This document shows, piece after piece, positions 3,167 to 27,958 of a stretch of DNA of 32,000 bases. The position numbers and the translations under genes are program-made. The notes below the pieces were generated by a model. That model was not told the origin of the DNA, ran no database searches, and was given only the letters and a program-made list of their open reading frames with translations. The stretch covers positions 7,014 through 39,013 of the forward strand of contig JAJRZD010000112.1 in the NCBI GenBank assembly GCA_024275415.1. The letters run 5' to 3'. Source of the DNA: an archaeon. GTDB taxonomy: Archaea > Asgardarchaeota > Thorarchaeia > Thorarchaeales > Thorarchaeaceae. Every line of letters starts with the position of its first letter. Positions within the stretch are counted from its first letter, which is position 1.

Positions 3167-5973
3167 CTCGATTTGGTTGTTTCAAGCTCAGCCTCTGGAG
3201 CCAGACTTTCTATAGTATGTTCGGAATCCTGGCCTGCAATCATTCCCCCCAGTACAATTGATGCTCTCATGGCGGCCGCACTTCCCGCAGTCACTGAATC
3301 GGGTATGTCCTTCGGCCCATCAGCACAACCACAGACGAAGATACCCATCTTGCTGGTATCGACAGGAGAAGTGAGCTCGTTCCGTACATCGATGTAGCCT
3401 TCATCTGAGAGGGCGATTCCAAGCTCCTCTGCTAGTATATTGACATCATCTGCAGGAAGCAGACCTGGGCTTATCACCAAAAGGTCATGCTCAACCTTCT
3501 CAACGGAGCCAGTTTCTGTGTTCTCTACTTGGATCATGAGGTTGTCATTCTCAGGGTTCTCGTCTACTTCACCAACACGCCCTCGGACAAAGTTGACGCC
3601 AAATCGGGTCTTTGACATCTCGAAGAACTCCTCGAACCCTTTGCCAAACGCTCGAATATCCGCATAGTATATAGAAACCTTCGCCTCTGGGTCATGTTCT
3701 CTAGCCATCACAGCATTCTTGATGCCATACATACAACAGACCCTGCTACAATGGGGAACATTCTTCTGAGTATCTCGCGCTCCGACGCATTGCACGAACC
3801 CGATGTTCTTCGGCATTTTTCCGTCGCTCAGGCGTATCAGATGACCTTGAGTAGGACCCGCTGCATTGATGAGTCGCTCGAATTCCATGGCTGTTATGAC
3901 ATTCTTGAACTTACCATATCCAAGCCGTTTGTATTTGCTGACCTCAAAGAGCTTGTATCCAGTGGCAACTACAATGGCTCCCACGTTCAGGCTCAACCGT
4001 TCCTCCTTCATCGAGTGATCGATGGCATCTCTATCACATGCTTCCACACAGTTCATGCACTCACAACATATCGTGCAGTTCAGACAGCGCCCTGATTCAT
4101 CGAGGGCAGTATCTTCATCAAATCCAAGCTCGACCTCTGAGAAATCGCCTTTACGACTTGCGATGCTCTGATGGGGCATCTCAGCTCTGGCTTGTGGTAT
4201 GAATGTCGATTGGTCTATCTTTGGTCTTGCAATCCTGTAGACCTCAGGGTCTCGCCCTGCTCGAATATCCAGTCCGTTAAGGTATCTATCGATAGATATT
4301 GCAGCCTCCTCACCCTGCCCAACAGCCTGCACTACTGTGGCTGGGCCAAGAACACAGTCACCACCAGCGAAGACTCCCTCATTACTCGTTTGCAATGTGA
4401 CTTGATCTGTGATAATGGTACCCCACTCGGTAGTATCCAAATCGTTGTGGAGTGGAATTGGTTCTACAGACTGACCAACTGCGATAATCATAGTGTCTGC
4501 AACGACAGTGAACTCCGAATCAGGTATTGGGATAGGTCTCCTTCGCCCTGAGTGGTCAGGTTCACCCAGACGCATTCGGATGCACTTGACACCTTGCACA
4601 GTACCTTTCTGGGTCAGAACCTCTACTGGATTCGTGAGGAACATGAAGCGGATCCCCTCCTGACGGGCCATCTCTACCTCTGATGGGATGGCTGGGAGTT
4701 CGACCTGTGAGCGCCGGTATATCATTGTGACTTCGGACGCACCCAGACGAAGAGCTGTCCTACACGAATCCACGGCTGCATCGCCACCCCCGATGACCAC
4801 TACGCGTTCACCTAATTCTACAGGCTTGTGAGACGCGACTCTATCGAGAAAATCAATTGCATGGTATACACCTTTCGAGTCTTCACCTGCAATCATCAGT
4901 TTGTTACTGTGACTGGCGCCTGTAGCTATGAAGACTGCCTTGAATCCTTCATCTTTGAGCTCATCGATTGATTGTATCTCTCTGTCACAGACGAACTCGA
5001 CGCCGTGCTTTGCGACCCATTGGATCTCTTCCTGAAGGATGTCCCTTGGCAGTCGGTATTCAGGTATCGCATATTTCAGCAGTCCTCCCTCTTCTGATCT
5101 CTTCTCAAAAACAGTCACAGGATACCCTTTACGGGCAAGATGATATGCACATGAGATTCCTGCTGGTCCGGCACCCACAACGGCAACCCGTTCACTCCTC
5201 TTGATTTGAGGTTCCACCGTGACCTGTGTGTTGTGTTCTCTCTCGTAGTCTGAGAGGAAACGGTGGAGATTCCTGATGCTAACGCTCTCGTCATACTCTC
5301 CTCGTTGACACTGCCCTTCACACCAGCTTACACAGACCCTTCCGAGAGTGCCCGGGAATGGTATTGCATCCCGCACAATTCTGATGGCTTCTGCATATTT
5401 CTTTTGATTCATCAAAGTGACGAATGCCTGAGCATTCACGCCTGCTGGACAATTAATCCTGCAGGCTGGGTGGTCTCGTTTATCAATCGTGTACACATTA
5501 GGTGTAGCCTGTGGGAACGGTAAATAGGTCGCTTTCCTGAAGCCCAATCCCTCATCAAATTCATTTGCAACCTCGATAGGGCAGACCTCAGAGCAGTCGC
5601 CACATCCCGAGCATTTGTCTTCCAGAATGTATCGAGGTTTCCTGATGACTTCCACATGAAAATTGCCAGCTTTGCCAGTCACTCGCTTGACTTCAGAATA
5701 CGTCAGAAGCTCGATATTTGGATGTCGTGCAACCTCACTCAATCGTGGCGTCAGTATGCATGCTGAACAATCAAGGGTAGGGAAGGTCTTGTCTATTGCT
5801 GCCATATGTCCGCCAATGCTAGGCGTCTTCTCGACAAGATGGACTTTGAAACCTTGGTTTGCGATGTCCAATGCGGCTTGCATTCCAGCAACACCACCAC
5901 CTATCACGAGTGCACTGGGTTCCTGGGTGTCCTTATTTGCAGGATTTGTTTGCGTAGGATGATCAACAGTCAT
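3163..5973 (-). CDS. hdrA: HdrA core with an inserted GltD/NfnB-like NAD(P)H:flavin Fe-S module (HdrL-like), 936 aa
   Basis: HdrA motifs: GGGVAG, DKTFPTLDCSACIL, CSGCGDCSEVCP, ITAMEFERL, QCVGARD...CSRVCC, GCADGPKDIP. Insert motifs: CRINCP...GRVCVSWCEGQC, GAGPAG, GGGDAAVD, YRRS, FAGGD, RCLNC. SD-like AAGGAG at 5982-5987. Confidence 0.93.
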   Translation of the reverse strand: MTVDHPTQTNPANKDTQEPSALVIGGGVAGMQAALDIANQGFKVHLVEKTPSIGGHMAAIDKTFPTLDCSACILTPRLSEVARHPNIELLTYSEVKRVTGKAGNFHVEVIRKPRYILEDKCSGCGDCSEVCPIEVANEFDEGLGFRKATYLPFPQATPNVYTIDKRDHPACRINCPAGVNAQAFVTLMNQKKYAEAIRIVRDAIPFPGTLGRVCVSWCEGQCQRGEYDESVSIRNLHRFLSDYEREHNTQVTVEPQIKRSERVAVVGAGPAGISCAYHLARKGYPVTVFEKRSEEGGLLKYAIPEYRLPRDILQEEIQWVAKHGVEFVCDREIQSIDELKDEGFKAVFIATGASHSNKLMIAGEDSKGVYHAIDFLDRVASHKPVELGERVVVIGGGDAAVDSCRTALRLGASEVTMIYRRSQVELPAIPSEVEMARQEGIRFMFLTNPVEVLTQKGTVQGVKCIRMRLGEPDHSGRRRPIPIPDSEFTVVADTMIIAVGQSVEPIPLHNDLDTTEWGTIITDQVTLQTSNEGVFAGGDCVLGPATVVQAVGQGEEAAISIDRYLNGLDIRAGRDPEVYRIARPKIDQSTFIPQARAEMPHQSIASRKGDFSEVELGFDEDTALDESGRCLNCTICCECMNCVEACDRDAIDHSMKEERLSLNVGAIVVATGYKLFEVSKYKRLGYGKFKNVITAMEFERLINAAGPTQGHLIRLSDGKMPKNIGFVQCVGARDTQKNVPHCSRVCCMYGIKNAVMAREHDPEAKVSIYYADIRAFGKGFEEFFEMSKTRFGVNFVRGRVGEVDENPENDNLMIQVENTETGSVEKVEHDLLVISPGLLPADDVNILAEELGIALSDEGYIDVRNELTSPVDTSKMGIFVCGCADGPKDIPDSVTAGSAAAMRASIVLGGMIAGQDSEHTIESLAPEAELETTKSR

Positions 5974-6537
5974 TATTTAAACTCCTTAATCCAGAAATAT
6001 TCTCTAACCTAACAAAGCAGTGCAAAGTGTGACTTTCTCTGAGATAGGCCCGAAATGATTCATTGTTCAAATACTCAGACCATCGCATAGATGTGCACAC
6101 TCATTGGTCTTGGATAATCTTTGATCGCCATCAGAGTACAGTCACAGATGTTTGATGTCCATCAGAAGGTTAGTTAACCTGCTATACTAATTGGAAAAGA
6201 ATGAAATAAGTTTGCGCAGTTTGGAAACGTGCAAAGAATAATTGTTTATGTTTTGAAATGAGCTTATTATGATGTTGAAATGTCCGAAATGTGACATATT
6301 TCGGATGGCCGTGAAACACATGTCTGGAACGTGGTATTCCTGTTTAATGCCTGCCTTGGGGATAAAAGCCATTTCCAAAATGAATGTTTCTATAGAAGAA
6401 ACCGAACATGGTGGTGTGTGGCTATATGGAAGACACAAGTGCTCATACTAAGTCACCATTGATGCCACTCTAGACGAGTTAATCTATCTCTGAACAAATC
6501 TTGAATATCAGGTCGGACAGTTGGTTAGTATCAACTA

Positions 6538-8412
6538 TCATGCCAACACAGAAGGAACAATGCAATCACCAAGTCGATGCTTGATGGCTTCCAGTTTTGC
6601 TCGTTGTTCAGATAGAATCCTGTAGAGCAATTCAGGGGCATCTGGCACCGTTTCACGGTATACTTTCTCGATCCTCTCAATCTTGGCGAGGTGGTCTGGC
6701 ACCCTGAGCTTGAACTGCTCCTCATATTCGGCTTCCGAATATTCCTTGTCCAGATGCTTCTCAAACAATGATTTGAGGTCTTCGTAATGGGGGATATGTC
6801 CTGTTGGTGTTGCGATTGCATCGACCTCGTCATGCACCCTTAGTTCCATCCATTTCAACCAGACACGCTTGTCTGACTTATCAGTTATGAAATTACCTTC
6901 CTTATCTCTCAGGAAATAGTTCACAGCAAAGATGAGAGGGGGTGAGTCGATATCCACAACGAAATCTAGGTGGTTCTGGATATACCTGCCCAGTGGGATT
7001 GAGATGAAATCTAGATTTGAGAAAGGCTGAAACTTTCTCACACCACTTGGTCCCAATGTTGCTGCGGTGGTTTCTGACTCAAGGCTTGCACCCATTGTGA
7101 TGACGCCATGTTCCCAGTTCAATGACTGCTGAACAGGCACCCAGGTATCGCGGTCTCTTCCACCATAAATGATGCCTCCTACCTCCACACCGCGGGGGTC
7201 ATCTAGAGCATCGTCCAAGTTCGAGAGACCGTCCAGACCAATGGTGTATCTTGCGTTTTTGTGAGCATACGGGATGACCTCACCGTTTCGATCAACCTTT
7301 CCTTCAAACCATTCGCCCGAGAAATTGATTCCAGCCTTTGGAGGCGGGAGTCCGTCATCCAACCAGCGAGGCTCAGCATCCTCCGTCACAAGTACATTTG
7401 AAAAGATAGCGGGCTGTTTTGAATGGAGGACATCCCAGATTATTGGGTCATCCTTTTCAGTCACAGAACGGATGATTCCGAAGATACCTCGTTCGACATT
7501 CACAGCCCTGACCTTTCCATCTATCTTTCTGAGATATGCAAGATCATCTCCCACGATGGAATTGCCGCGGGTCATTGATGTGCTCGTCTTTCCACATCCG
7601 GATGGGAATGCCCCTGTGAAGTATGTTTTCCGTCCGGTGGGTCCATGTACGGCCATAAGGAACATATGTTCGGCAAGCCACCCCTCTTTGTCAGCTTTCC
7701 GAATCGCAAGGCGAAGTGCAAGCTTCTTCAGTCCGATAGTGTTCCCCGCATATTGAGTGTTCATACTGTAGACGGTATTTGTCTTGTAGTCAATCATGAC
7801 ACCTCGTTTCTTCCAGTCCGTGCTCACTGAATGGATGAGCTTGCCAGAAGAATGCAGCATCCAGAAGATCTCGTGATCCTCCGGCATCCTTCTGAAGTAA
7901 TCATACCCGCGTCGATAGAGTAGATCCTCACTGTGTGCCACATAGAACGAGTCAGTTATCTGTACGGCGGGAATGGAGAACGGCGAGTCCAGAGGACCGA
8001 GAACGAAGAAGCGAACGACCATCTTCTTATTTTCCATGGTTCCAGACAGTCGATCCCGGGCCAATTGCAGACCGTAGTCGCGGTCTATCTGAGATAGATG
8101 CTCACCTAAAACTTCACCTTTTGGTACTAAATAGACCGTACGTTCTTTATCTCGTGCCTGATCAAAATAACCATCGAAATGGACTGTGTGGTATGGGTTG
8201 GCAAGTGGTGCTTCCTCTCCCCGTGCTATCGCTGTGCGTCGGATGTACTCGGTGTCCTCTCTCGAATCATTGCATACGAACACCTTCATCGGCTTGCAGA
8301 GCCTTATTGCATCTGCTACGAACTTATGCACTCGCCTGTTAGGAATCGCAAGCAGTTTCCTAAAATTAGCATCAGTCAATGACTGTTCGAGAACCGACAT
8401 TATCTCGTTCAA
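6538..8412 (-). CDS. pckG: Phosphoenolpyruvate carboxykinase (GTP-dependent)
   Basis: YAGNTIGLKK, WLAEHM, GAFPSGCGKTS (P-loop with Cys), VGDDLA, ERGIFG, HKNARYT, IIYGGRD, VNYFLRD. 624 aa; TTG start with GGGGA 8 nt upstream (alternative ATG at 8400). Confidence 0.95.
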   Translation of the reverse strand: MNEIMSVLEQSLTDANFRKLLAIPNRRVHKFVADAIRLCKPMKVFVCNDSREDTEYIRRTAIARGEEAPLANPYHTVHFDGYFDQARDKERTVYLVPKGEVLGEHLSQIDRDYGLQLARDRLSGTMENKKMVVRFFVLGPLDSPFSIPAVQITDSFYVAHSEDLLYRRGYDYFRRMPEDHEIFWMLHSSGKLIHSVSTDWKKRGVMIDYKTNTVYSMNTQYAGNTIGLKKLALRLAIRKADKEGWLAEHMFLMAVHGPTGRKTYFTGAFPSGCGKTSTSMTRGNSIVGDDLAYLRKIDGKVRAVNVERGIFGIIRSVTEKDDPIIWDVLHSKQPAIFSNVLVTEDAEPRWLDDGLPPPKAGINFSGEWFEGKVDRNGEVIPYAHKNARYTIGLDGLSNLDDALDDPRGVEVGGIIYGGRDRDTWVPVQQSLNWEHGVITMGASLESETTAATLGPSGVRKFQPFSNLDFISIPLGRYIQNHLDFVVDIDSPPLIFAVNYFLRDKEGNFITDKSDKRVWLKWMELRVHDEVDAIATPTGHIPHYEDLKSLFEKHLDKEYSEAEYEEQFKLRVPDHLAKIERIEKVYRETVPDAPELLYRILSEQRAKLEAIKHRLGDCIVPSVLA

Positions 8413-8666
8413 TGTTCTATTCCCCTGATTTCACGGAGCACACATGTCCGGTTGATTCATCTCCAACATGACACACACGCCTGCTGCAACCTGACCCTTA
8501 AAACAGTTTTTCCATGAAACACGCAGTTGTTCAATCCCAAAAATAGATTGTCCAATAGGAACACATGTTCATGTCGTCTATGACAACACTCAAATGTTGA
8601 GGGCAGCCGATAACGGCTCATGCCTTGAAGGAGAGCAAGGTAGAAGAATGGATGATGGTGAGTCTG

Positions 8667-10847
8667 ATGCTGAAGGAGTTCACCTATGACGTACCAAAGA
8701 TAGAGCGCGGCTATGCCAATCAGACGCTCTACGTGAATTTGAGCACCAACGAGATCAAGGTCAAGCCTGTTGATGAGAAGATGAAAGAAACCTTCACTGG
8801 AGGAAAAGGCTTCGACCTGTGGCTTATGTGGAACGGGCTACCTAAAGACAAGGTTGTCAAATGGGATGATCCCGAGAATGAGATCTGTATCGCCTCAGGA
8901 CCATTGGGAGGCGTGACCCAGTACCCGGGAGCTGGAAAATCAATCGTGACGACAATCTCGCCTATGACTGGTATCCCGATTGACTCTAATGTGGGAGGGT
9001 ATTTTGGGCCCCACCTGAAGTTCAGTGGATTTGATGCCATGGAAATCCAGGGAAAGGCAAATTCTGATATCTATATCTTCATTGATGGAGATCACGGCAA
9101 GGTTCAGATATATGATGCCTCTGACCTTCCTGACACGGCCTACGAGATCACGCGGGTTCTTAGCGAAAGGCATACTGAAAAGGACGGTAAGGATCTGTCG
9201 GTGGTGTCAGCGGGACCTGGTGCTGAACATGCATGGATGGGGTGCCTGAACTTTAGCTGGTGGGATATGAGACGGAATATGCCTAGATACAAGCAAGCAG
9301 GCCGTGGAGGAGTTGGTACTGTATTCCGTAACAAAAGAATCAAGGCTTTAGTCTGCAAGATTCAGAAAATCACACTAGATATGAACAATCCTGCGGATCC
9401 GGATGGAGTAAAGAAGGTCGGTCGTGAGCATTCCAGCGAGATCCTCGAACTCGATTCAAAGCAGAACAGGATGCGTGTTGTTGGAACTGGACACCTGCCC
9501 AGCATCATGGACGAGTTCGACCTACTGCCAACACGCAACTTTAGGACTGGAAGTGATCCTGAAGCGAAGAACCTGTTTGGCGATGTCTGGGAAAAGATAT
9601 TCACGAATCCCGGAAAGGGCTGGGATGGATGTTGGAGACCCTGTGCCATCAATTGTTCACACTGCATTGAGGGCTTTGTCCCTAAAACAGGGCCATTCAA
9701 AGGCAAGACTGTTCTGGTCGATGGGCCCGAGTACGAAACCATCGCTGGGTGTGGTTCTAATATTGGTGTGTTCGACCCTCACTATGTTGCAGAGATGAAC
9801 TTTTACTGTGACGCCTATGGGATCGACACGATATCTTTTGGCACAACAATGGCATTCGTGATGGAACTCTTTGAAGAGGGATATATCGACGAGAAGGCTA
9901 CTGGGGGACACAAGCTCACATGGGGCGCAGGAGAAGAGGCGTTAGCTGTCCTTCACGAGATTGCTGAGGGTAAGGGCTTTGGCGGTGAGCACTTTGGCAA
10001 GGGGACGCACTATCTCAAAGGCTACTTCAGAAAATTCGGTGTCGATGAACAGATCATGCAGGACATAGGGATGGAACATAAGGGTCTTGAATACTCCGAA
10101 TACATGACCAAGGAAAGCCTTGCTCAACAGGGGGGTTACGGACTCGCCTTAAAAGGTCCACAGCATGATGAGGCATGGTTGATATTCCTTGACATGGTTC
10201 ACAACTATATGCCAACTTTTGACCAGAAAGCAGAGGCACTTCACTGGTTCCCAATGTGGCGAACATGGTTCGGGTTGAACGGACTGTGTAAGCTACCGTG
10301 GAATGATGTCGTTCCTGCTGACAATGCTCAGACTGATGAGCCTGCAAAGGTTCCCAAGCATATTGAGTTCTATGCACGGTTCTTCGAAGCGATGACAGGA
10401 CGTCCAACTAAGGGTGATGACCTCGTAGGCATGTCTGAGAAAGTCTACAACTTCCAGAGGATATTCAACATTCGCCAAGGCAAAGGGCTGCGAATAAATG
10501 ACTCTTTCATCCCATACAGGAGCGCTGGACCTGTCACTGATTGGGAATATAAGTCACGACAGGAACGTTATGATACCCAACTCAAGGAGTCAGGAATCGA
10601 TATTGATGGTATGACAACCACTGAGAAGAAAGACAAGCTACGAGAAATCCGGGAGGAACGTTACAGGCTCCTTACTGATGCGGCATACAAACGGCGAGGC
10701 TGGACACGGAATGGCGTGCCCACATTGGACAAGGTAAAGGCACTTGGACTTGACTGGATCCCCGGACTTGTTGATATCGTGAAGAAGCATACAGAGTCAC
10801 AGCCACCCAATGAAACACTTCCTGCTAGTGATGAGGCTTGGATGTGA
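8667..10847 (+). CDS. aor: Aldehyde:ferredoxin oxidoreductase family tungsto/molybdo-enzyme
   Basis: TFTGGKG, DSNVGG, LKFSGFDA, SAGPG, AGRGG, DGPEYET, CDAYGIDTIS, GLCKLPW, RGW. ATG 8667 was chosen because GGTGAG lies just upstream (the track starts at 8625). The substrate subfamily cannot be assigned. Confidence 0.9.
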   Translation: MLKEFTYDVPKIERGYANQTLYVNLSTNEIKVKPVDEKMKETFTGGKGFDLWLMWNGLPKDKVVKWDDPENEICIASGPLGGVTQYPGAGKSIVTTISPMTGIPIDSNVGGYFGPHLKFSGFDAMEIQGKANSDIYIFIDGDHGKVQIYDASDLPDTAYEITRVLSERHTEKDGKDLSVVSAGPGAEHAWMGCLNFSWWDMRRNMPRYKQAGRGGVGTVFRNKRIKALVCKIQKITLDMNNPADPDGVKKVGREHSSEILELDSKQNRMRVVGTGHLPSIMDEFDLLPTRNFRTGSDPEAKNLFGDVWEKIFTNPGKGWDGCWRPCAINCSHCIEGFVPKTGPFKGKTVLVDGPEYETIAGCGSNIGVFDPHYVAEMNFYCDAYGIDTISFGTTMAFVMELFEEGYIDEKATGGHKLTWGAGEEALAVLHEIAEGKGFGGEHFGKGTHYLKGYFRKFGVDEQIMQDIGMEHKGLEYSEYMTKESLAQQGGYGLALKGPQHDEAWLIFLDMVHNYMPTFDQKAEALHWFPMWRTWFGLNGLCKLPWNDVVPADNAQTDEPAKVPKHIEFYARFFEAMTGRPTKGDDLVGMSEKVYNFQRIFNIRQGKGLRINDSFIPYRSAGPVTDWEYKSRQERYDTQLKESGIDIDGMTTTEKKDKLREIREERYRLLTDAAYKRRGWTRNGVPTLDKVKALGLDWIPGLVDIVKKHTESQPPNETLPASDEAWM

Positions 10848-11023
10848 GCTGAGAACGGAGGTGATGGTATTCTATCCCCTCCTGTTTCTTTATTGCAGGC
10901 TAGAATGCAATGGACACTCTAGTGATATCATCTCAACTATCGGATTAGGAATGATTCGAGGTTTCATATCCTTCCTCAACGCAATCCCCGCAGTATATGA
11001 AGTAGTGGGCTTGACCTTCTTAT

Positions 11024-11386
11024 TCAATCTTCAACATACTTGTTTATGATGCTAATGAATTCGTCATAGCTGAATGGTTTCAAGAGAAAGTGCACTGAGC
11101 CTGCTTGTAGCGCTTCCTCTTGGACGGTTTCGTCCGCGCTGATGAAGAGCACTTTTGTGTCGTGCTTTATCTCAAGAATCTTCTTGGTAGCATTTACACC
11201 ATCAATGACTGTCATCCTGTGATCCATGATGACCAAGTCAATCTCGTCCAAATGCTTCAAAAATAGCTCAACCGCTTCTAGTCCATTTATCGCCTGCGCG
11301 ATTACCTTATGGTCTGTCATCTCCACGACATATTTCAGAAGGTTGTTCAGGTCTTTGTCATCATCAACAAGCAGGATCCGTGCCAT
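11024..11386 (-). CDS. Stand-alone CheY-like response regulator
   Basis: ILLVDDD, LVIMDHRM (phospho-Asp), FISA, FLLKP. 120 aa, no output domain. Confidence 0.92.
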   Translation of the reverse strand: MARILLVDDDKDLNNLLKYVVEMTDHKVIAQAINGLEAVELFLKHLDEIDLVIMDHRMTVIDGVNATKKILEIKHDTKVLFISADETVQEEALQAGSVHFLLKPFSYDEFISIINKYVED

Positions 11387-11405
11387 TCTCTATAAACCTA
11401 AGCCA

Positions 11406-11418
11406 TTCATTTAATGAA
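11406..11418. promoter_or_regulatory. Short palindrome TTCATT-T-AATGAA upstream of the receiver gene
   Basis: 6-bp arms with a 1-nt spacer, about 20-32 nt upstream of the 11386 start. The arms match the core of the 24213-24232 palindrome. Short enough to be chance. Confidence 0.25.
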
Positions 11419-11586
11419 CATTGTGGTTGTTACAGAGTTGGAAGGAGTCCAATCAGATGTCATACGACTGATAGTGTTAGAGATTCAGGTGTTAAAATTT
11501 CAGGCACATATCTATTTTTGTTTGTTTCAAACGGGAACTTCCTGCTGATTTTTCGCAGAGTCAGTTATTGTCTAAAACTCCAAGAG

Positions 11587-12057
11587 TCACAGAGTCAATC
11601 GCGCATGGCTATCTTGAGCGCTTTTCTTTAGCTCCTTTAACATCTTTACAATAAAAGGTGCGTCATCGCTATACAACTCAATAAGGGAGTCTATGTTAAC
11701 CACGATTTCTTTCAGCTGATCCACCATCTTCTTGACCCCTATGGAGATGAGCGAGCTGGCTTCTTCATCAATTGAATATAGAATCCTTCTTCTGCCTCGA
11801 CCAGTCTGTTTGTAATCCGCAGCACCATAGACTAGTCCTAGAGCCTCAAGCTGCGAAATGATGAGTCCTACATTACTTCGGGAGTAGTTTGTAAATTCGC
11901 AGATGTCGTCCACACTTAATCGTTCATTGGATTCATACTTGGCCACATAAAGGGAGGCAAGTACAGGTCCTGTATTCCTCGGCAGTCCCAACCAGTCTGA
12001 TTGCTTTTCAAAGAACCTGACTAAGTCAGGATAATCATCTGTTGTTGATTGTTTCAT
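11587..12057 (-). CDS. GbsR/MarR-family winged-helix transcriptional regulator
   Basis: GLPRNTGPVLASLY...LSVDDICEFTNYSRSNVGLIISQLEALGLV...GRRRILY. AGAGGA SD upstream. Confidence 0.8.
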   Translation of the reverse strand: MKQSTTDDYPDLVRFFEKQSDWLGLPRNTGPVLASLYVAKYESNERLSVDDICEFTNYSRSNVGLIISQLEALGLVYGAADYKQTGRGRRRILYSIDEEASSLISIGVKKMVDQLKEIVVNIDSLIELYSDDAPFIVKMLKELKKSAQDSHARLTL

Positions 12058-19727: not shown

Positions 19728-21616
19728 ATGAGGGACAATGGCTCGAATCAATCATCTCATGCTAACCAGCTGACTCCAATTGCATATCTCAATTTAATCT
19801 CTGTTCCAGTATGTATCTTCGACAATGTTGGTCGTATATGTGGGGCAAATGAAGAATTCATACGGATAATAACAGGCAAAAAACAATCATTCGAATCAGC
19901 AAGAGAGGAGATTGGGTCGCACGAAGTGGTTTCTCAGATTAAAGAGGCTAGCACGGATGATACGGTTGAACAGATTGACATTGACATAAATCATGAGTCA
20001 TATATTGCTCGTTTCACCAAGGATGAAAACTACTCGTCTGTTGTCCTTAACAAAAAATCTCATCAAAGAGCCATGGAGGTTGAGTTGGGAAAGAAGCTTG
20101 AGATGGAGCAGGTGAATGCAAGTATCGCATTCAGACTCTCCAAGACAACCGACTTCAAGCGCGCACTTGAAGAAACAATTACTGAGATTGGTTTTCTCCT
20201 TGGTGCAAATCAAGTCGAGTTATTCTGTCTTGATCCCAATTCAGGCCAGTTAAAACTCAATCTGAGTTGGTGTGCCTTGGACAACAAACACCCAATTCAA
20301 GCAGAACGCATACTTGACATGCTCGACATCCAGAAAGTCAAATCCAACAAGGGGAGTGAGAGGGCCTTTGACATCGAACAATGCATGAAGCCAGTTGAAA
20401 ATCAGATTGGAGTCAAGGGTGAGGTCATCTTCATTCCTATCGATGCCACTCAGGAGATTCTGATTGTAGCAATAGGGTCAGAATGTTTTGTTTGTGATAG
20501 AGAGAGATATAGACCTACTCTAGAGATCATTGCAAACATAATCCTAAATGCATTGCGTGTTCATCTGGCAGAAAGGAAGCTCCGACAGAGCGAAGAAAGG
20601 TACAGAAAAGTAGTGGAAGAATCACTTCAGGGCGTCATCGTGTTTCATGCAGATTCTGCTGAGATTGCCTATTCCAATCCCACTGCGTGCAAGATGCTTG
20701 GCTATTCGCTTGATGAACTCACATCCATGACCGCGAAAGATGTTGAAACAATGGTTCATTGGACTGATAGAAGCGAATTTAGAACACTGTTTACAGCAAT
20801 CAGAGAGGGAAAGAATGACAAGACCAAGACAGACATCAGGGTCACAAAGAAAGATGGGAAGATTGTTTGGTTCGAGCTATTACTAAGCAGGATTGAATTC
20901 GAAAATGAGCCGCATATCCTTGCGGCATTGATCGATATTTCTGAGAAACGACAGTCTATTGCGGACCTTCAGAACAGCAACCGCGACTTGGAACTATATG
21001 CATCACTTCTTCGCCACGACATGAAGAATGATTTGCAGGCAATCTTTAGCAATACAGAAGCAATCAATCTATTAATCCAGGATGACGAACTTGTCGAAGA
21101 GTTCACATCATCCACAATTGCTGCTGTTGAGCGGATGCTAGATGTTCTCAATATATTTGGTCGCCCAGATGATATGCAGGCTAAGGAAATTGCACCATTC
21201 CTTGAGAGTATCGCAGTGGAGGCTGCACGATCATATGTCGGTATGAGGTGTTCTCTAAAGATTGATCCTGATGTGTTTATGATTCGGGTGATAGGCGGCA
21301 GACTTCTCCCAATGGTCTTCACAACATACTGCGAAATGCAGCAAAATATGCTGGACCCAATCCAACAATTACAATAACAGCCAAAAGAGATGGAGAGTTC
21401 ATAGAGGTTCGAATGGCTGACAATGGACCCGGAATCGCCTCTGAAATCAAAGACAACCTTTTCGAAAAGGGCGTCACGACCGGAGGTACAGGTTTGGGTC
21501 TCTATCTCTCGAGAAAGGTAATGAATGCCTATGGGGGAACCATCAACTGCATCCCAGCAGGGCATGAAGGCGAGGGAGCAGTCTTCGTGATCAGATTGAG
21601 AATTTCGTCCGGATGA
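19728..21616 (+). pseudogene. PAS-GAF-PAS histidine kinase split by a 1-nt frameshift at ~21321 (pseudogene or sequencing error)
   Basis: ORF 19728-21377 carries the H-box LRHDMKN and reads ...LLPMVF. The alternative frame continues NILRNAAKYAG...MADNGPG...GTGLGL to the stop at 21616. The joined length would be 629 aa. Confidence 0.85.
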
Positions 21617-21619
21617 ATC

Positions 21620-22003
21620 TCATTCCAACTCATCAATGAGTTTCTGAATGGAAGCACGGAGTCGGTCGGATGAGAGAGCACCCTTAATCATATAATCCTT
21701 GATTCCCATATCGAAACACTTGCTAAGGGTTTCTTCCTCATCAATGGCTGTTAGTGCCACTACGACAATATCGGGAAATTTCTCCCGTACTTGTTTGATG
21801 ACCTCCAAGCCACTCATTTTTGGCATGACAAGATCTACGATGAGGATATCGGGAGGTGATGTTTCGATCTTCTCAAGAGCCTCAAGTCCATTCATCGCAA
21901 AATCTATGTTGAACCCTCTAAGCAGAACTCTAGCGGCCCGTATGAAATCTTCTGAGTCATCGACCAGTAAAATTGTCCCTCTAGTTGATTTCTTGGAATT
22001 CAA
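21620..22003 (-). CDS. Stand-alone CheY-like response regulator
   Basis: ILLVDDS, ILIVDLVMP, ALTA, YMIKG. TTG start with GGAGG upstream; overlaps the upstream ATPase gene by 23 nt. Confidence 0.92.
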   Translation of the reverse strand: MNSKKSTRGTILLVDDSEDFIRAARVLLRGFNIDFAMNGLEALEKIETSPPDILIVDLVMPKMSGLEVIKQVREKFPDIVVVALTAIDEEETLSKCFDMGIKDYMIKGALSSDRLRASIQKLIDELE

Positions 22004-23414
22004 TCCTTACGCCTCCATCCTTTTTCATTGTGTACATGCAATACTGCGATGTTCGAGGCCGAATACCCCTGACCAATGTTGCTGAAGCTCGTGTGCTGAA
22101 CCCAATGTGCATGTCAGCTAAATCGGCTAGCATCTCATTGACCTTTGGTGTGCTATTGTAGCCAATCGCAATACAAAGACCACTTTCCTGTGCGGATATC
22201 TCTGTTATATTCATTGCCCATCTGGACAAATCGCCGTAATCAAGCATTGATTGAAGGAATCCAAACCCTATGATAAGTAGGATCTCACCACACCCATTAG
22301 CGCGAAGCTCCTTCAGGGCGGTATCGAACGATAGTCGCATATCCTCAGCTCTTCCGCGTGTGAATATGACATATGGCTCACGTGCAATAATTGGGTCGTG
22401 ATCTGCTTCGTCTGAGAATCGCAATGATACCATTCGTACATTTGTGTTGAGTCTATCAAAGAATTCGTATTTCAAAGCCGCAGATTTTATCCTTCTAAAT
22501 GTGAGCTTGTTTGGAGGGATAATGACAACTCCTCCACCTTGATTGGTGAAATTCGAGATTGTCGTGAGAAGTAATGTGATTATGACTTCGTTGTCCACAT
22601 CAGCACCAATCTCCCAGAAACTAGTACTACCCAACCTGAATCCTTTGAAAATCTCGTCAAACGGTTGAAGTCCTAAATAATACCGCGTTCCTGAATGTGA
22701 TGTTGGTTCAGTTATCGAGAATTTCCGTAAGTCGTCACCATCTGCGTTCCACAACTGCGAGAATCCATCATCTGAAATCGTAAAACCCCTCGTCCGTGTT
22801 TCAATTCGTGTCCCACGGAGCTTCTTTAGAGTGATGTCTCTCCAGATCCCTCCATTTTCCTCTTCATAGGCTTGCAGAATCAAAACACCATCTACTGCGG
22901 AGCTGATATGTGATCCCGTTTCATGCTCAGAAATGATAACCACTTTAGCAAACGTGTCCTTGCTCAATTTGGAAAGTGAAGATACCAATGATTTGACATC
23001 TGCATTGAGCACTTCGGCAAGTGCTTCTATCGTGTCGATAACACAGAATGGGAAACGAGTTTGCCGGATTTTCTCGTCTATCACGCTAAGAAAGGTCAGC
23101 TCATCTGATATTACTGTAGTCGGGTCTTGAGGGTCCGCTATGCTGCTAGGTGAGGATAGGTCAAGAACAAGATCCGGTTGAATGACTTGATCCATCCACT
23201 CGAACTGGATGCGCATTGTATATGACGGGACTCTGGATGTGACATAGACGTAGTTTTTACTTTCATAGTGCTCATTTAGCAATTCTTTGAGAAGCGATAA
23301 TGCGAAGACTGTCTTGCCAGACCCTGAAGGGCCAGCGACAAGCACCGTCTGGCCATATTGTCGTCTCAGGAACTCGTGGAACTCTTGTGGGATTGAATAA
23401 TGTTCTATTTCCAT
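21981..23414 (-). CDS. GvpD-like double-domain KaiC-superfamily ATPase (second domain degenerate)
   Basis: Domain 1: GPSGSGKT, YVTSRV, VIDTIE, HISSAVDGV, KKLRG. Domain 2 begins LGLQPFDEIFKGFRLG but has no Walker A. Confidence 0.8.
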   Translation of the reverse strand: MEIEHYSIPQEFHEFLRRQYGQTVLVAGPSGSGKTVFALSLLKELLNEHYESKNYVYVTSRVPSYTMRIQFEWMDQVIQPDLVLDLSSPSSIADPQDPTTVISDELTFLSVIDEKIRQTRFPFCVIDTIEALAEVLNADVKSLVSSLSKLSKDTFAKVVIISEHETGSHISSAVDGVLILQAYEEENGGIWRDITLKKLRGTRIETRTRGFTISDDGFSQLWNADGDDLRKFSITEPTSHSGTRYYLGLQPFDEIFKGFRLGSTSFWEIGADVDNEVIITLLLTTISNFTNQGGGVVIIPPNKLTFRRIKSAALKYEFFDRLNTNVRMVSLRFSDEADHDPIIAREPYVIFTRGRAEDMRLSFDTALKELRANGCGEILLIIGFGFLQSMLDYGDLSRWAMNITEISAQESGLCIAIGYNSTPKVNEMLADLADMHIGFSTRASATLVRGIRPRTSQYCMYTMKKDGGVRIEFQEIN

Positions 23415-23436
23415 TTAGATACCAAACTCCCGTCTA

Positions 23437-24183
23437 TTAATCGATAGGAGGCATATCAGACACCTGAATGCCTTCGGAGCCAATGACCAGGAGTAATGGG
23501 TTCATCACATGCTGAATCCCTCTCATCTTAGAAATCTCAATTGTGCGGGTTCTTGTTGTTCCACGAGATAGGATCTTCATTTCCAACACGCCATCACTCA
23601 TGAAACCTTCAACACCGAACCGACCAATCTCATCCTCTTTTGGGCTCTCGCATGAGATGAGTGTCGTTATGTTATGCGCTTTCAATGCACGAACAAGGTT
23701 CAGCAGATCCTGCCTTATCGCAAAGATATTCTCTTTGAAGAGAGTCAGCGTCGTGATGGAGTCAACGACTATCCGCTTTGCATTGACCGATTTCACTGCC
23801 TTGAAGATGAGGTCAACAAGGGCGTTGATTGAGAACTCTTGACGGCCATGAATAGGATGATCAGGACGCATCTCTAGCCGGTCGTCCCTGAGCATCGGTG
23901 AGGCATCGATTATGCTTAGCTTGTTCTCGTTCTCAAATTCCTCAAGATCCCAACCGAATGCAGCCATGTTACGTATTGTCGAGCTTCTCGCTTCTTCAAG
24001 AGAAACTAGCACCCCGGGCTCATCATACATCCGAATCCCATTCACGAGAAATTGATTGAGAAGGATGCTCTTGCCGGTTCCGGGTCCACCACTTACAAGT
24101 ACGACATTTCCTCGCGGGATGCCTCCATTCAATGCATCATCCAATCCTGAAATTCCCGTGAGAGTTCTTTCTTTAACGCCCAT
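23437..24183 (-). CDS. kaiC: Single-domain KaiC-like (COG0467/RAD55-type) ATPase
   Basis: TGISGLDDALNGGIPRG, GGPGTGKS, VSLEE, IVVDSIT, SDGVLEM, KMRG. Start moved to ATG 24183 (AGGAG upstream; 248 aa) from the track start at 24327. Confidence 0.88.
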   Translation of the reverse strand: MGVKERTLTGISGLDDALNGGIPRGNVVLVSGGPGTGKSILLNQFLVNGIRMYDEPGVLVSLEEARSSTIRNMAAFGWDLEEFENENKLSIIDASPMLRDDRLEMRPDHPIHGRQEFSINALVDLIFKAVKSVNAKRIVVDSITTLTLFKENIFAIRQDLLNLVRALKAHNITTLISCESPKEDEIGRFGVEGFMSDGVLEMKILSRGTTRTRTIEISKMRGIQHVMNPLLLVIGSEGIQVSDMPPID

Positions 24184-24208
24184 TTTATTTGCTCCTTTCC
24201 TGTTGTAT

Positions 24209-24236
24209 GAACAATATTCATTAATGAATATTATTC
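24209..24236. promoter_or_regulatory. Palindromic operator candidate between divergent KaiC-like units
   Basis: Perfect 20-bp palindrome AATATTCATTAATGAATATT (24213-24232), extending to 28 bp with one mismatch. Confidence 0.6.
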
Positions 24237-24278
24237 TTGTTATATTAAGAAAATCTGTATTTATTTGAGAGGTCTTAC

Positions 24279-24971
24279 ATGCTGCTAAAGAAGTTGTTGA
24301 ACCAAGAAATCCCTGATGGGACGACACTAGCTTGTATTGGTAAACCTGGTAGTGGTAAGACCTTGCTTTGTATCAAACTTGCATATGAGTACACTCAAAG
24401 AAAAAAGAATGTGGTATATCTTACAACCGAAAACACACCCACAAGACTGCTTTCTCTTCATGAGCATCTCGGAATCCGTTTCGATATAGCGAACGATTTG
24501 CAGTACTTGAGGTTCATTGATGCCCATAGTTGGAAGGTTGGAGCAAAAGGAGAAGGACTTTCAACGACAATGATCTCGAACCCTGGGAATTTTTCCGAGG
24601 TGTCATTGGCAATTAACTCGGCTTCAAAGGATCTTCCAGAAGGGACACTTGTCATAATAGACTCGCTATCTGGACTGATGTTGGGTGCTCCAGACGAAAC
24701 ACGAATCAAGAATTTCTTCCACGTACTCTCTCAGCGACTCAATCAAAAAGGGTACACCCTTATCGCTATCGTCGAGGATGGGTGTCATGACCCCAAACTT
24801 ACGTTGGGTCTTCGAGCGTTAGCTCATAGCTCGCTCCTTATGAGAGTGACAGAAGATGGCATGGGCATGATGAATCGTGAGATACGCATAGCAGAGCTGT
24901 TGGGATGCGATGTCAATACGAAATGGCATCGAATTAGGGTGACAGACACTGGACCAGAGATTGGAGGGTAG
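24279..24971 (+). CDS. RAD55/KaiC-like ATPase, intact Walker A, no Arg-finger motif
   Basis: GKPGSGKT, YLTTE, FIDAHSW, IIDSLS. The C-terminal strand reads REIRIAELLG where KMRG is expected. Confidence 0.82.
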   Translation: MLLKKLLNQEIPDGTTLACIGKPGSGKTLLCIKLAYEYTQRKKNVVYLTTENTPTRLLSLHEHLGIRFDIANDLQYLRFIDAHSWKVGAKGEGLSTTMISNPGNFSEVSLAINSASKDLPEGTLVIIDSLSGLMLGAPDETRIKNFFHVLSQRLNQKGYTLIAIVEDGCHDPKLTLGLRALAHSSLLMRVTEDGMGMMNREIRIAELLGCDVNTKWHRIRVTDTGPEIGG

Positions 24972-24974
24972 TGA

Positions 24975-25619
24975 TTGAATCAGGTATATCTTGAAATCAG
25001 GGGGTCAAAAATCACTATTCCAGAAGGGACGCAGTTATTGCTCATTGGTCCTCCAGGAAGTGCAAAGATTAGGTTCGCTCTGAGTATCATGCGAAGTCAA
25101 CTGGCATCAGGGACAAAAGGAGTGTTCGCAACAATGACACTCACACCTAGTCAAGTTCGTGCTTTAGCTACAAAAATCAATACCTTGCCGGTTGGTAATC
25201 TAGAGATAATCGACGGTGTATCATCCATAGCGGGAAAGGCGTCAACTGAAAAAAGATCCTTCAGAAGTTTATCCGAACTCAACTCAATGAGTCTAGTACT
25301 CCTTGATAGCATTCAGAACGAACGTGGTGGTATCTGCTGTGTCGACAGCCTATCGACACTATTAATCTATTCAGATCCAAGCTCGGTGCTAAAATTCGTT
25401 CAGGTTGTAAGTGCAAAAATGAAATCTCAAGGGATAACGGGCATATTCGTCCTAGAGGAAGGTGTCCATGAGCCAGAATTGGCATCACTCCTGTCATTCA
25501 TACTGGATGGCGTGTTGCACGTTCGAGAAAATGACTCGCAAGGTGAACTAAGGTACGAGGCTCGGGTCGAATATGTTCGAGGAAAAATCGTAGATAGTAG
25601 GTGGGTACAATTAGACTAA
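24975..25619 (+). CDS. RAD55/KaiC-like protein, degenerate Walker A, Arg finger retained
   Basis: GPPGSAKI, IIDGVSS, VDSLSTL, LEEGVHEP, ILDGVL, EYVRG. TTG start 3 nt after the previous stop, with GGAGGG upstream. Confidence 0.8.
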   Translation: MNQVYLEIRGSKITIPEGTQLLLIGPPGSAKIRFALSIMRSQLASGTKGVFATMTLTPSQVRALATKINTLPVGNLEIIDGVSSIAGKASTEKRSFRSLSELNSMSLVLLDSIQNERGGICCVDSLSTLLIYSDPSSVLKFVQVVSAKMKSQGITGIFVLEEGVHEPELASLLSFILDGVLHVRENDSQGELRYEARVEYVRGKIVDSRWVQLD

Positions 25620-25672
25620 TCATCACATATAGATTGAAGTATAAAATACGATACATAGGGAGATGATTCAAA

Positions 25673-26194
25673 ATGACAGTTCCAGTCTACAAGGTGTTAC
25701 TTGTTGGCGAGCCGAATGTCGGCAAGTCCTCACTGATACGTAGAATGCTTTTGGGCGAATTCGATGAGAACTATTCAGCCACGGTAGGTGTGGATCTGAG
25801 TGCTATGGCCGTGACATTGGACGGAGGGCGATCTGTGATCCTTACCGTTATCGACCTTGGCGGTCAGGAGGATTTCACAGGACTGAGGACACATTATTAC
25901 AAGGACGCTCACTTCTCAGTTCTTGTGTATGATATTGCGAATCGAAAGAGCTTCGAATCACTCCCTGAATGGTATGAAGGTCTTTCTGTGGCACTAACTG
26001 GAAAGTCAGATTCTCGACTTCCGGGAATCCTTGTGGGCAATAAGAAGGACATTGAAACACTTGCACAAGTCGAAACAGTCGAAGCAAACGACTTCGCACA
26101 AAAGCTAGGCTGGCAATTCATAGAAACCAGTGCAAAAAGCGGATTGAATGTTGAAACCCTTTTCAAATATGTTGCCTCGGAGGTAGACAAGTGA
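25673..26194 (+). CDS. Ras-superfamily small GTPase, Rab-like
   Basis: G1 GEPNVGKS, G2 ATVGVD, G3 DLGGQ, G4 NKKD, G5 ETSAK. RabF-like YYKDA and LVYDI. 173 aa with no C-terminal Cys tail. Confidence 0.93.
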   Translation: MTVPVYKVLLVGEPNVGKSSLIRRMLLGEFDENYSATVGVDLSAMAVTLDGGRSVILTVIDLGGQEDFTGLRTHYYKDAHFSVLVYDIANRKSFESLPEWYEGLSVALTGKSDSRLPGILVGNKKDIETLAQVETVEANDFAQKLGWQFIETSAKSGLNVETLFKYVASEVDK

Positions 26195-26200
26195 TGGCGT

Positions 26201-26887
26201 CTACATTTCAGAAACCACAGATCTTATGATATCATTCAGTTGATGGATAGAAACGGGTTTCTCGAGCCATCCTACCAACCCTAGCGCCTCGACATCAACT
26301 TGAATATCTTCTTGTAGATACCCAGTCATGATGACAATCTTGGCATCAGAGTCAAGAGCCAAGATTTTCTGGGCAAGCTCATTGCCATCCATTTTTGGCA
26401 TTGCCAAGTCGGTGATGACGAGTGCAATTGATTTTGAATGTTGCTTGAACAATTCAAGAGCCTCAACACCATTCTTTGCACTTAGCGTGGGATAACCCAA
26501 ATGCCTCAGAAGAGAGGAAATGACCTTGAGAACCATTGGATCATCCTCAGCCAGTAGAATCGTGTTTCTATCAACTGCTGCTGGTTCATGTTCGATGTGC
26601 GGCAGTGCTCCAATTGTTTCCCTTGGTGCACTGTCTGTTGCTGCACTATCGGAGTCTCTTTCACCGATGCTCTGTACAATTTTAGTAGCATTCTTGCCGA
26701 GTTTTTGAATCGCTTTCATACTTGCTTTGGCTTGTTCAGGAAGGGAAGGATCGGCATCAAGCATCTCGGCTAAACCAATGATGCTCTGAAGGACATTGTT
26801 GAACTCATGCAGGACTCCTCCCGTAAGCTGACCTACTATTTCTTTGTCCCTATCTTTAGATGCTGTTTTGGGCTTCTTCCGCGTCAT
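26201..26887 (-). CDS. HisKA (DHp)-linker-REC protein lacking the HATPase domain
   Basis: GQLTGGVLHEFNNVLQSIIG H-box and two helices, an Ala/Asp/Ser-rich linker, then ILLAEDD, VITDLAMP, MTG, LEKP. Start ATG 26887 (GAAGGGA upstream) or 26914. Confidence 0.85.
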   Translation of the reverse strand: MTRKKPKTASKDRDKEIVGQLTGGVLHEFNNVLQSIIGLAEMLDADPSLPEQAKASMKAIQKLGKNATKIVQSIGERDSDSAATDSAPRETIGALPHIEHEPAAVDRNTILLAEDDPMVLKVISSLLRHLGYPTLSAKNGVEALELFKQHSKSIALVITDLAMPKMDGNELAQKILALDSDAKIVIMTGYLQEDIQVDVEALGLVGWLEKPVSIHQLNDIIRSVVSEM

Positions 26888-27173
26888 ATTATTCCCTTCA
26901 AGCAACAAGAACATGGTTCTTAGCAGGTTTTGAATATTGTGGAGTTGTTACGGGAAATGTAGGTCAATTGGACTCGATATGTTTCAATAGTGGCTACGAG
27001 GGCATCTTAGATAATGATCTTATTGCGACTTGAAAGGACACTGGGTTTGGTGTCGAGGAACCTATGAAGGACAATTGAAAGACACTCATCTGCGGAAAGG
27101 TGTTTTGCAGTATGATCATTTTCAAACTGATGTGATTAACAGCCTGAAAAAGTTCCTGCATGATCCCTTATTC

Positions 27174-27563
27174 CTACGACCTGTGCCTTTGCATCCCCCT
27201 TCGAATCTCATCAATTGTGGGAACCTCAATCCTGTGAGAGTAGTCGTCCCATTGCTTCCTGAATTTGTACAAGTACATGCCAATCTCAAGAGGGTTTCCA
27301 AAGAGGGTTTCAAAGTTCTCAAGGATTGTACCTTTGATGATTAATGGCAACTGTTCGAAAACTTGGATGTCATACTTCTCAGATGCCTTCCCTGATGCCT
27401 CTACTCGAATTCGCATCATTTCCGCAGGATCCTCTGACCTCGCAATGATTGCAACATCAATATCAGAGTTGGGATCAAATTCACTGGTTAAGCAAGACCC
27501 GAATAACAATACTTCTTGGTTCGACAAGAACGAAAGCTCTTCTCGTACCTTGTCAAGATTCAC
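27174..27563 (-). CDS. mntA: Minimal nucleotidyltransferase (MNT) antitoxin
   Basis: Exact GSX10DXD motif (GSCLTSEFDPNSDID). Start moved to GTG 27563, with GGAGG upstream and an 11-nt overlap with the HEPN gene. Confidence 0.85.
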   Translation of the reverse strand: MNLDKVREELSFLSNQEVLLFGSCLTSEFDPNSDIDVAIIARSEDPAEMMRIRVEASGKASEKYDIQVFEQLPLIIKGTILENFETLFGNPLEIGMYLYKFRKQWDDYSHRIEVPTIDEIRRGMQRHRS

Positions 27564-27958
27564 CCAGATACCCCTCCAGAAGTTCGATGAAGCGTGTGAA
27601 AGTGACCTTGACATTCTGAATTGATCTTAACACAATGGAGGCATCAATTCCATTGTACCGATGCACCAGAATGTTCCTAAGACCGTTGCATCGTGACAGG
27701 GAATTCGAGAGCTCTGCGTCTATGAATTTACGACTAAACAAGCTCTGGATATTCTCATAGTCACCCTTCGGCATGATGCCCGAATCCTTGCAGAGCATGG
27801 CAATTATGTCCATTGTTGAATCAACGGCGGAGCTGATATCATAATATATTCCTTTCAATGCAATACCTGACGGTTCTGGGAGTGCATCATCAATCTCTCG
27901 GAAACATTCGATAATAGGATATCTTCGACTTGTACCTCATGATTCTGCTTTCGTCCAA
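27553..27958 (-). pseudogene. hepT: HEPN (DUF86/HepT-like) RNase toxin, frameshifted near 27913
   Basis: RNILVHRY (RX4HXY). The upstream TTG 27958 frame reads MDESRIMRYKSKISY, and one extra base separates it from the frame IECFREIDDALPEPSGIALKGIYY. The joined length would be about 134 aa. Confidence 0.75.

Follow-up and report, generated by a model that had tools for sequence, protein, structure and literature searches.

The window analysed here, 32,000 nt of a Thorarchaeaceae contig (JAJRZD010000112.1) from a 3.5-Mb genome assembly that is 93% complete, contains a seven-gene cluster (21620–26914) that places a Rab-like small GTPase among KaiC-family ATPases and response-regulator receivers. 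Open reading frame (ORF) calls and Pfam/NCBIfam domain assignments agree on the cluster, and the seven genes, spacings and palindrome listed by an initial annotation made from the sequence were all found again. Three genes form a leftward unit on the minus strand: a single-domain KaiC (23437–24183, as revised below; 248 aa; PF06745, 225 bits), a GvpD-like ATPase (21981–23414; 477 aa; PF06745, 58 bits; PF07088, 56 bits) and a stand-alone receiver protein (REC; 21620–22003; PF00072, 83 bits), with a 22-nt gap between the first two and a 23-nt overlap between the last two. The plus-strand unit comprises KaiC-like A (24279–24971; 230 aa; PF06745, 76 bits), KaiC-like B (24975–25619; 214 aa; PF06745, 52 bits; PF24336 (DUF7504), 39 bits) and the Rab-like GTPase (25673–26194; 173 aa; PF00071, 146 bits), spaced by 3 and 53 nt. 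A minus-strand HisKA-REC gene without HATPase_c (26201–26914; PF00512, 26.9 bits; PF00072, 77 bits) follows, and its stop codon converges with that of the GTPase at a distance of 6 nt. The cluster lies in a His-Asp island whose genes encode PAS kinases, a REC-PAS kinase and a stand-alone REC, together with a MarR-like gene.

The listed ORF of the leftward KaiC (23437–24327) begins at a GTG that runs into KaiC-like A. We corrected this start, taken over in the initial gene list, to the ATG at 24183, which is most likely the true one since it removes the overlap, is preceded by AGGAG and yields a product of 248 aa, as compared with 246–257 aa in the orthologues. The two units are therefore separated by a divergent spacer of 95 nt (24184–24278; 25% GC) that holds a palindrome, a TATA-like TTATATTAA and Shine–Dalgarno (SD)-like sites for both units, making it a candidate shared promoter and operator. 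The palindrome (24209–24236) is 28 nt long with 14-nt arms and a perfect 20-nt core, and is single-copy in the genome even when 3 mismatches are allowed. As a conserved operator it was rejected: it is absent from the orthologous spacers and is at most a species-specific site. The KaiC/KaiC-A spacers of Hermodarchaeota loci (L035, L075, L076, L078, L081, L082) share a motif approximating CTACAGACTTCCCAAAACC, in either orientation, which is missing from the window spacer with its own unique palindrome.

The GvpD-like protein is a double KaiC-like protein with an inactivated second domain. Walker A (GPSGSGKT), Walker B and the KLRG motif are all intact in its N-terminal domain, while no Walker A (G-x4-GK[ST]) occurs in the C-terminal domain. 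An AlphaFold2 model built from 19 relatives reached a pLDDT of 86 and a pTM of 0.83, and its top 50 PDB matches were all full-length KaiC of the cyanobacterial type (natural, mutant or designed; E about 1e-23). These alignments span both domains over about 485 columns, which supports the assignment as a double KaiC-like protein. In the N-domain, the Walker A motif is invariant, as are the aspartate of Walker B, the arginine of KLRG and one glutamate. The sequence KaiC phosphosite-like SHISS (window 22887–22913) was discarded as a phosphorylation motif, because its Ser-Ser is not conserved and orthologues read SPLDH or SPIDH. The PF07088 P-loop domain scores 56.4 bits against a cut-off of 24; PF20440 (GvpD basic region 2) reaches 19.2 bits, under its cut-off of 27.9, and is listed in precomputed tables for several relatives. 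When 1.8 billion representative proteins were searched with a profile, 161 relatives were recovered at E<1e-30, mostly of about 460–500 aa. A search for related loci with the single protein gave no match, a word-index search gave one relative, and a metagenome scan with the alignment returned distant relatives only (22–26% identity).

Among the other ATPases, the single-domain KaiC has a Walker A of GGPGTGKS and an EE catalytic pair, and KaiC-like A has an intact Walker A (GKPGSGKT). The Walker A of KaiC-like B is degenerate (GPPGSAKI), as in one Hermodarchaeota orthologue (GPPGTVKA), and this protein is probably an inactive subunit. Among proteins outside its orthologues, it is nearest by score to DUF7504 proteins. 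The cluster thus totals five KaiC-like domains, two with a degenerate P-loop. The best cluster scores against the NCBIfam KaiC equivalog were 196 and 54 bits, compared with a cut-off of 408. The initial annotation saw neither kaiA nor kaiB, and our Pfam/NCBIfam scan of the cluster genes gave no match to KaiA or KaiB families; a KaiB-like gene was found only at another locus of the genome.

Both receivers have readable phosphoacceptor pockets. The stand-alone REC is CheY-like and starts at a TTG, and its translation shows the DD, D, T and K positions. The acidic pocket, Asp, Thr and Lys motifs of the two cluster receivers are LLVDDS...IVDLVMP...ALTA...IKG and LLAEDD...ITDLAMP...IMTG...EKP, with PF00072 scores of 83 and 77 bits. 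The HisKA domain of HisKA-REC scores exactly its cut-off (26.9 bits) and has the H-box HEFNN; no HATPase_c match was found in this protein.

The GTPase has intact G1–G5 motifs (GEPNVGKS, T37, DLGGQ, NKKD and SAK) and a PF00071 score far above the cut-off of 21.6 bits; among solved structures it matches Rab1, Ypt6, Rab6 and Rab11 best. It ends in ...ASEVDK with no nearby cysteine, unlike eukaryotic Rabs with their prenylation cysteines. The 53-nt spacer that separates it from KaiC-like B has no oligo-T run and carries an SD-like GGAGATGA before the GTPase ATG. The window genome has 27 Ras-like GTPase matches in 3.5 Mb; the initial annotation described Asgard archaea as encoding many such proteins. 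The Roadblock family PF03259 has 12 matches in the genome and 0 on the window contig. Complex prediction for the GvpD-like protein and the GTPase, both supplied as alignments, scored 0.00 with controls not run and is evidence neither way.

Five of the seven genes constitute a conserved core, in the order REC, GvpD-like and KaiC (leftward from the spacer: KaiC, GvpD-like, REC), divergent from KaiC-like A and KaiC-like B. In a search of 61 related genomes, KaiC-like B orthologues (40–46% identity) were found in only two genomes, both of another family, and the window's own genus and family held only a 29%-identical paralogue. Those two loci carry the full divergent five-gene set, as do two more in genomes named Hermodarchaeota in GTDB. 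We then searched a GvpD-like marker profile over 400 Asgard genomes. Orthologues occur in 16 of 19 genomes of the Hermodarchaeota family f12, at E<1e-160 except for one contig-end fragment; of 86 genomes of the window's family, only the window genome and one other (G399) have one. Wherever the Hermodarchaeota contigs reach, the five genes keep the same order and orientation. The single-domain KaiC is 51–59% identical to the genes at the same position (except for two contig-end fragments), KaiC-like A 34–41% and KaiC-like B 38–46%. The flanks vary by lineage, with IscS/NifU genes in Hermodarchaeota and PAS kinases at the window, which argues that the five genes travel as a unit.

All orthologous loci have the overlapping GvpD-like/REC pair, which is conserved far beyond the core and recurs in archaeal relatives at a greater distance. 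In the wider relatives the two genes usually overlap or lie a few bases apart, and histidine kinases or further KaiC-like genes often come next. HisKA-REC, counted as a cluster member by the initial annotation, is absent from every orthologous locus and on this comparison is a local convergent neighbour rather than a conserved member. Genomes of the same genus lack the cluster at both the DNA and the protein level; no mobile-element signs of a recent insertion were seen at the cluster, and its composition is unremarkable. One distant relative (L063:191–2720) has two Pilin_N genes directly before the GvpD-like gene, which brings to mind the link already reported between KaiC-family ATPases and loci for archaeal type IV pili (PMC4858521).

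For comparison of neighbourhoods, a further 40 loci were fetched. In the Hermodarchaeota genus g27, all 13 loci (12 plus that of genome G047) read KaiC, GTPase, GvpD-like, REC in one direction. At G399, in the window's family, REC and the GvpD-like gene run leftward with the GTPase divergent (1 locus); this GTPase is 60% identical to that of the window and its sister in the tree (support 100/91), and the locus is otherwise flanked by fumarase and other unrelated housekeeping genes. One contig of a metagenome relative has a GTPase beside a GvpD-like/REC pair. In the Lokiarchaeia family f29, a distant GvpD-like gene (21–25% identity) is followed on the same strand by a GTPase, with a gap of 38–123 nt and no REC, in 11 of the 11 contigs that are long enough; one of these genomes is the cultured Candidatus Lokiarchaeum ossiferum Loki-B35 (CP104013.1), where the pair lies at about 4,874–4,876 kb with a 75-nt gap. 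A small GTPase adjoins the GvpD-like gene in four gene arrangements across Thor-, Hermod- and Loki-type genomes. Given 27 GTPase genes in 3.5 Mb, chance would place one at any given neighbouring position about 2% of the time.

The gene-neighbourhood check suggested by the initial annotation thus finds the GTPase syntenic with KaiC-like genes elsewhere (G399, g27, f29 and the metagenome contig), and the lack of such synteny that would have argued against a link is not what these genomes show. From these neighbourhoods, the Rab-like GTPase does not appear to be a chance neighbour but has a well-supported genomic link to the GvpD-like ATPase. The constant neighbour is the GvpD-like double-KaiC ATPase, joined in Thor- and Hermod-type genomes by its overlapping REC, and not the RAD55/KaiC pair that precedes the GTPase in the window. 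A GTPase tree that included the complete GTPase sets of two genomes recovered the g27 and the f29 cluster GTPases each as a clade with good support. Once a single long branch was taken out, the best tree grouped all GvpD-associated GTPases on one side of a branch, at a support of only 50/85, and a single old partnership of the GvpD-like ATPase and the GTPase is possible. In three of four aligned Lokiarchaeia GTPases located 3′ of a GvpD-like gene, the G3 motif is D-[LI]-A-S-Q, with serine in place of the DxxG glycine; the serine-bearing proteins are those at L088:8551–9021, L089:6241–6717 and L093:4020–4505, and include the Candidatus L. ossiferum copy.

Outside Asgard archaea, a 7.8-kb contig carries a GvpD-like/REC pair divergent from two KaiC genes and, further on, a DUF7504 gene, a KaiC/GTPase fusion and a Roadblock gene. 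In the fusion protein (404 aa), a KaiC domain with a degenerate P-loop is linked to a GTPase of the Arf/MglA-like type that has a TPGQ motif. This fusion family comprises at least 120 clusters, the best 120 all of about 389 aa, and its source names include Methanosarcinales, ANME-2, Methanoperedens, Methanocellales and Hydrothermarchaeales. Its members carry database names such as ‘GTP-binding protein’ and ‘ATPase domain-containing protein’, and sit in operons of the order DUF7504, fusion, Roadblock. We located fusion genes at L064:327–1541 (minus strand) and at L065:6001–7170 and 10259–11434 (plus strand); besides this second fusion, L065 also holds three V4R genes and two more Roadblock genes. 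The GTPase domain of the fusion is 24% identical to the window GTPase, and the parts of these operons are analogous, not orthologous, to the window genes. As fusion-type evidence, they point to a joint function of KaiC-like domains with small GTPases in archaea. Given this euryarchaeal family, the link is not special to the eukaryote-like GTPases of Asgard archaea.

A second locus in the window genome (L001, G000:C104:12000–25061, about 4378–11883) also combines the two protein types. A Rab-like GTPase gene is followed by a WD40 gene, then by a divergent GTPase and by a series consisting of a 132-aa gene, a KaiB/thioredoxin-like gene, a KaiC, a KaiC/DUF7504 gene and a gene for an uncharacterised 765-aa protein. 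Of 14 genomes of the family, 13 preserve this order (L128–L141). The 132-aa protein is Roadblock/LC7-like as judged by language-model features alone (0.94).

Taken together, these comparisons describe a real, lineage-conserved cluster that reads as a variant of the archaeal KaiC-type signalling hub with a GTPase link. The reading we favour, with moderate confidence, is a cytoplasmic KaiC-family ATPase signalling module in which a receiver-gated GvpD-like ring is read out through the Rab-like GTPase. PAS histidine kinases of the surrounding island would phosphorylate the receiver, and the phosphorylated receiver would set the ATPase or oligomeric state of the GvpD-like ring, possibly a mixed assembly with KaiC, KaiC-A and KaiC-B. 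The ATP-dependent state of the ring would in turn be read out through the GTPase, with the ring serving as nucleotide-state regulator or effector platform and the GTPase as the switch arm of a KaiC-type hub. In that role it would hold the place of the Roadblock-type partners of bacterial MglA, or that of the fused GTPase domain in the euryarchaeal inactive-KaiC/GTPase proteins. Physical coupling of the GTPase to the GvpD-like ATPase is something we infer from gene order. Of the module envisaged at the outset, which joined a His-Asp phosphorelay, KaiC rings and a GTPase switch, comparative genomics links the ATPases, the receiver and the GTPase; HisKA-REC and the RAD55/KaiC pair as the constant neighbour have fallen away.

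Several observations weigh against this receiver-gated module, and most of them bear on a first alternative, that the KaiC/GvpD-like proteins and receiver form a unit on their own and that the Rab-like GTPase, transcribed separately and with no relation to it, lies beside it by chance. In the window the GTPase follows KaiC-B, in the unit opposite the GvpD-like gene, and could have its own promoter, given a TATA-like TATAAAAT in the 53-nt spacer. All three genomes of the Hermodarchaeota genus g34 have the five-gene core with no GTPase, and GvpD-like paralogues of other Asgard families lack one at 12 of 13 loci (present at 1). The two nearest paralogues of the GTPase in the window genome, at 59% and 46% identity, are found in unrelated contexts, and each of these genomes is crowded with GTPase genes (17 to 27). 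Genomes that share a genus or family do not count as independent observations, and a common origin of the GvpD-associated GTPases is without statistical support. Coincidence nevertheless accounts poorly for G399, where the orthologous GTPase again lies by the GvpD-like/REC pair with all other neighbours different, or for adjacency throughout the g27 and f29 loci in differing gene orders, when only about one position in fifty is expected to be so occupied. The existence of proteins that unite an inactive KaiC domain with a GTPase points the same way, and we consider a chance neighbour quite improbable.

A partnership of the GTPase with the KaiC-A/KaiC-B (DUF7504) pair instead of the GvpD-like protein is unlikely, in our estimate. 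The rightward unit would then be a split version of the euryarchaeal fusion operon and the leftward unit a co-regulated arm, as the order KaiC-A, KaiC-B, GTPase with its short gaps (3 and 53 nt) might suggest. KaiC-B resembles the fusion N-domain in its degenerate P-loop and scores nearest to DUF7504, which lies directly before the fusion in the euryarchaeal operons, and the second locus in the genome similarly arrays Roadblock-like, KaiB-like, KaiC and DUF7504 genes beside GTPases. What speaks against the pair is its absence from G399, f29 and the metagenome contig, all of which keep the GvpD-like gene by the GTPase, and the position of the g27 GTPase within the GvpD-like unit and not the KaiC-A/B unit. 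The fusion GTPase domain, moreover, is of the Arf/MglA-like (TPGQ) type and only distantly related to the window GTPase, and the fusion N-domain scores KaiC-B at 48 and KaiC-A at 43 bits, no meaningful difference. A third possibility, that the GvpD-like protein is an ATP-dependent antagonist of a transcription activator, as haloarchaeal GvpD is, within an expression switch that does not directly involve the GTPase, draws on the PF07088 match above cut-off, the weak match to GvpD basic region 2, the possible operator palindrome in the shared promoter region and the established repression of gas-vesicle genes by GvpD through GvpE. The basic-region match, however, is below cut-off, and neither the cluster nor the orthologous loci contain a GvpE-like or other DNA-binding gene. 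No gas-vesicle genes occur among the window genes, and a genome search with PF00741 gave 0 matches, as did its controls. With the recurrent GTPase neighbour also left unexplained, we regard an antagonist role as very unlikely.

Just past the cluster, at window 27174–27858 on the minus strand, an overlapping pair encodes an MNT-like nucleotidyltransferase (PF01909) and a HepT-like ribonuclease in a typical toxin–antitoxin layout, with 67%-identical DNA matches in genomes of the same genus. On the other side, window 19728–21377 (plus strand) encodes a 549-aa protein with one PAS domain and about 290 unassigned N-terminal residues; an antisense ORF that overlaps it (20969–21565, minus strand; 198 aa) could be assigned to no family and is unlikely to be a gene. 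A defence-system interpretation of the region was set aside: PADLOC matches were weak and partial (E 1e-4 to 2e-8) and, for the ATPases, limited to the P-loop region.

Asgard archaea encode dozens of eukaryote-like small GTPases, for which, to our knowledge, the regulators and effectors are essentially unknown. According to Tran et al. 2024 (PMC10933270), the GTPase genes of MK-D1 as a rule do not share operons with genes for Roadblock, longin or TRAPPC3, so that partners are hard to predict from gene layout. The GvpD-like/KaiC ATPases and the CheY-like receiver are concrete candidate partners, in a pairing that recurs in three Asgard classes, and its presence in the cultured Candidatus L. ossiferum makes the question directly testable. 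If the module is as we propose, the KaiC-based signalling network suggested for archaea would extend to GTP switches, a connection to which the large euryarchaeal fusion family independently points. A bolder extension is that KaiC-family rings, made of GvpD-like double-domain ATPases and their inactive paralogues, have an ancestral and dedicated role as regulators or effector platforms for a single lineage of Rab-like GTPases in Asgard archaea, paired since the common ancestor of Loki-, Hermod- and Thor-type archaea. We hold this to be doubtful; were it true, a eukaryote-type GTP switch would have come under an ATP-driven, phosphorelay-gated prokaryotic switch before the rise of eukaryotes.

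Signalling hubs of KaiC-like ATPases have been described for archaea, among them fusions of inactive KaiC with REC and KaiC proteins that have KaiB-like partners (Makarova, Galperin and Koonin 2017, through PMC5847659 and PMC4858521), and KaiC-REC links are likewise an established archaeal theme (PMC5847659). A literature search found no GTPase link to these hubs, and no paper connecting KaiC/GvpD-type ATPases with small GTPases in Asgard or other archaea, with the limit that Makarova et al. 2017 may mention the euryarchaeal fusion. Like such hubs, the window has several KaiC paralogues, some P-loop-inactivated, beside two-component parts (REC and PAS kinases); it differs in its fixed five-gene divergent layout, in a double-domain GvpD-like protein that overlaps a separate REC, and in the recurrent Rab-like GTPase.

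Haloarchaeal GvpD represses gas-vesicle genes through GvpE. It shares with the window protein a length of about 470–530 aa and an N-terminal KaiC-type P-loop domain that matches PF07088 over its cut-off, whereas the window has no gvp genes or GvpE-like partner nearby, a PF20440 match below cut-off, and a receiver and a small GTPase as the partners. In the KaiABC clock, cyanobacterial KaiC passes its signal to RpaA by way of SasA/CikA. The GvpD-like model aligns with it across two domains at E 1e-23, and output is tied to His-Asp components in both. In contrast to cyanobacterial KaiC, the second domain of the GvpD-like protein lacks Walker A, the Ser-Ser is unconserved, the NCBIfam scores are below cut-off, the cluster has no KaiA or KaiB, and the other three cluster ATPases are single-domain.

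Links between GTPases and two-component systems are known in bacteria, as in Myxococcus MglA/MglB with RomR and the actinobacterial conservon CvnA-D (PMC4316618, PMC9481161). There, as in the window, a Ras-superfamily GTPase is tied, by genome position or by function, to two-component proteins. The window contig differs in having no Roadblock/MglB protein, a Rab-like GTPase with a normal DxxGQ, and a KaiC-family partner, which those systems lack. Compared with the euryarchaeal DUF7504/fusion/Roadblock operon, the window genes are separate (a stop codon and the 53-nt spacer intervene), the GTPase belongs to another subfamily and there is no Roadblock. The two nevertheless share a P-loop-degenerate KaiC-like protein encoded directly before a small GTPase, and one euryarchaeal contig also carries the GvpD-like/REC pair and two KaiC genes.

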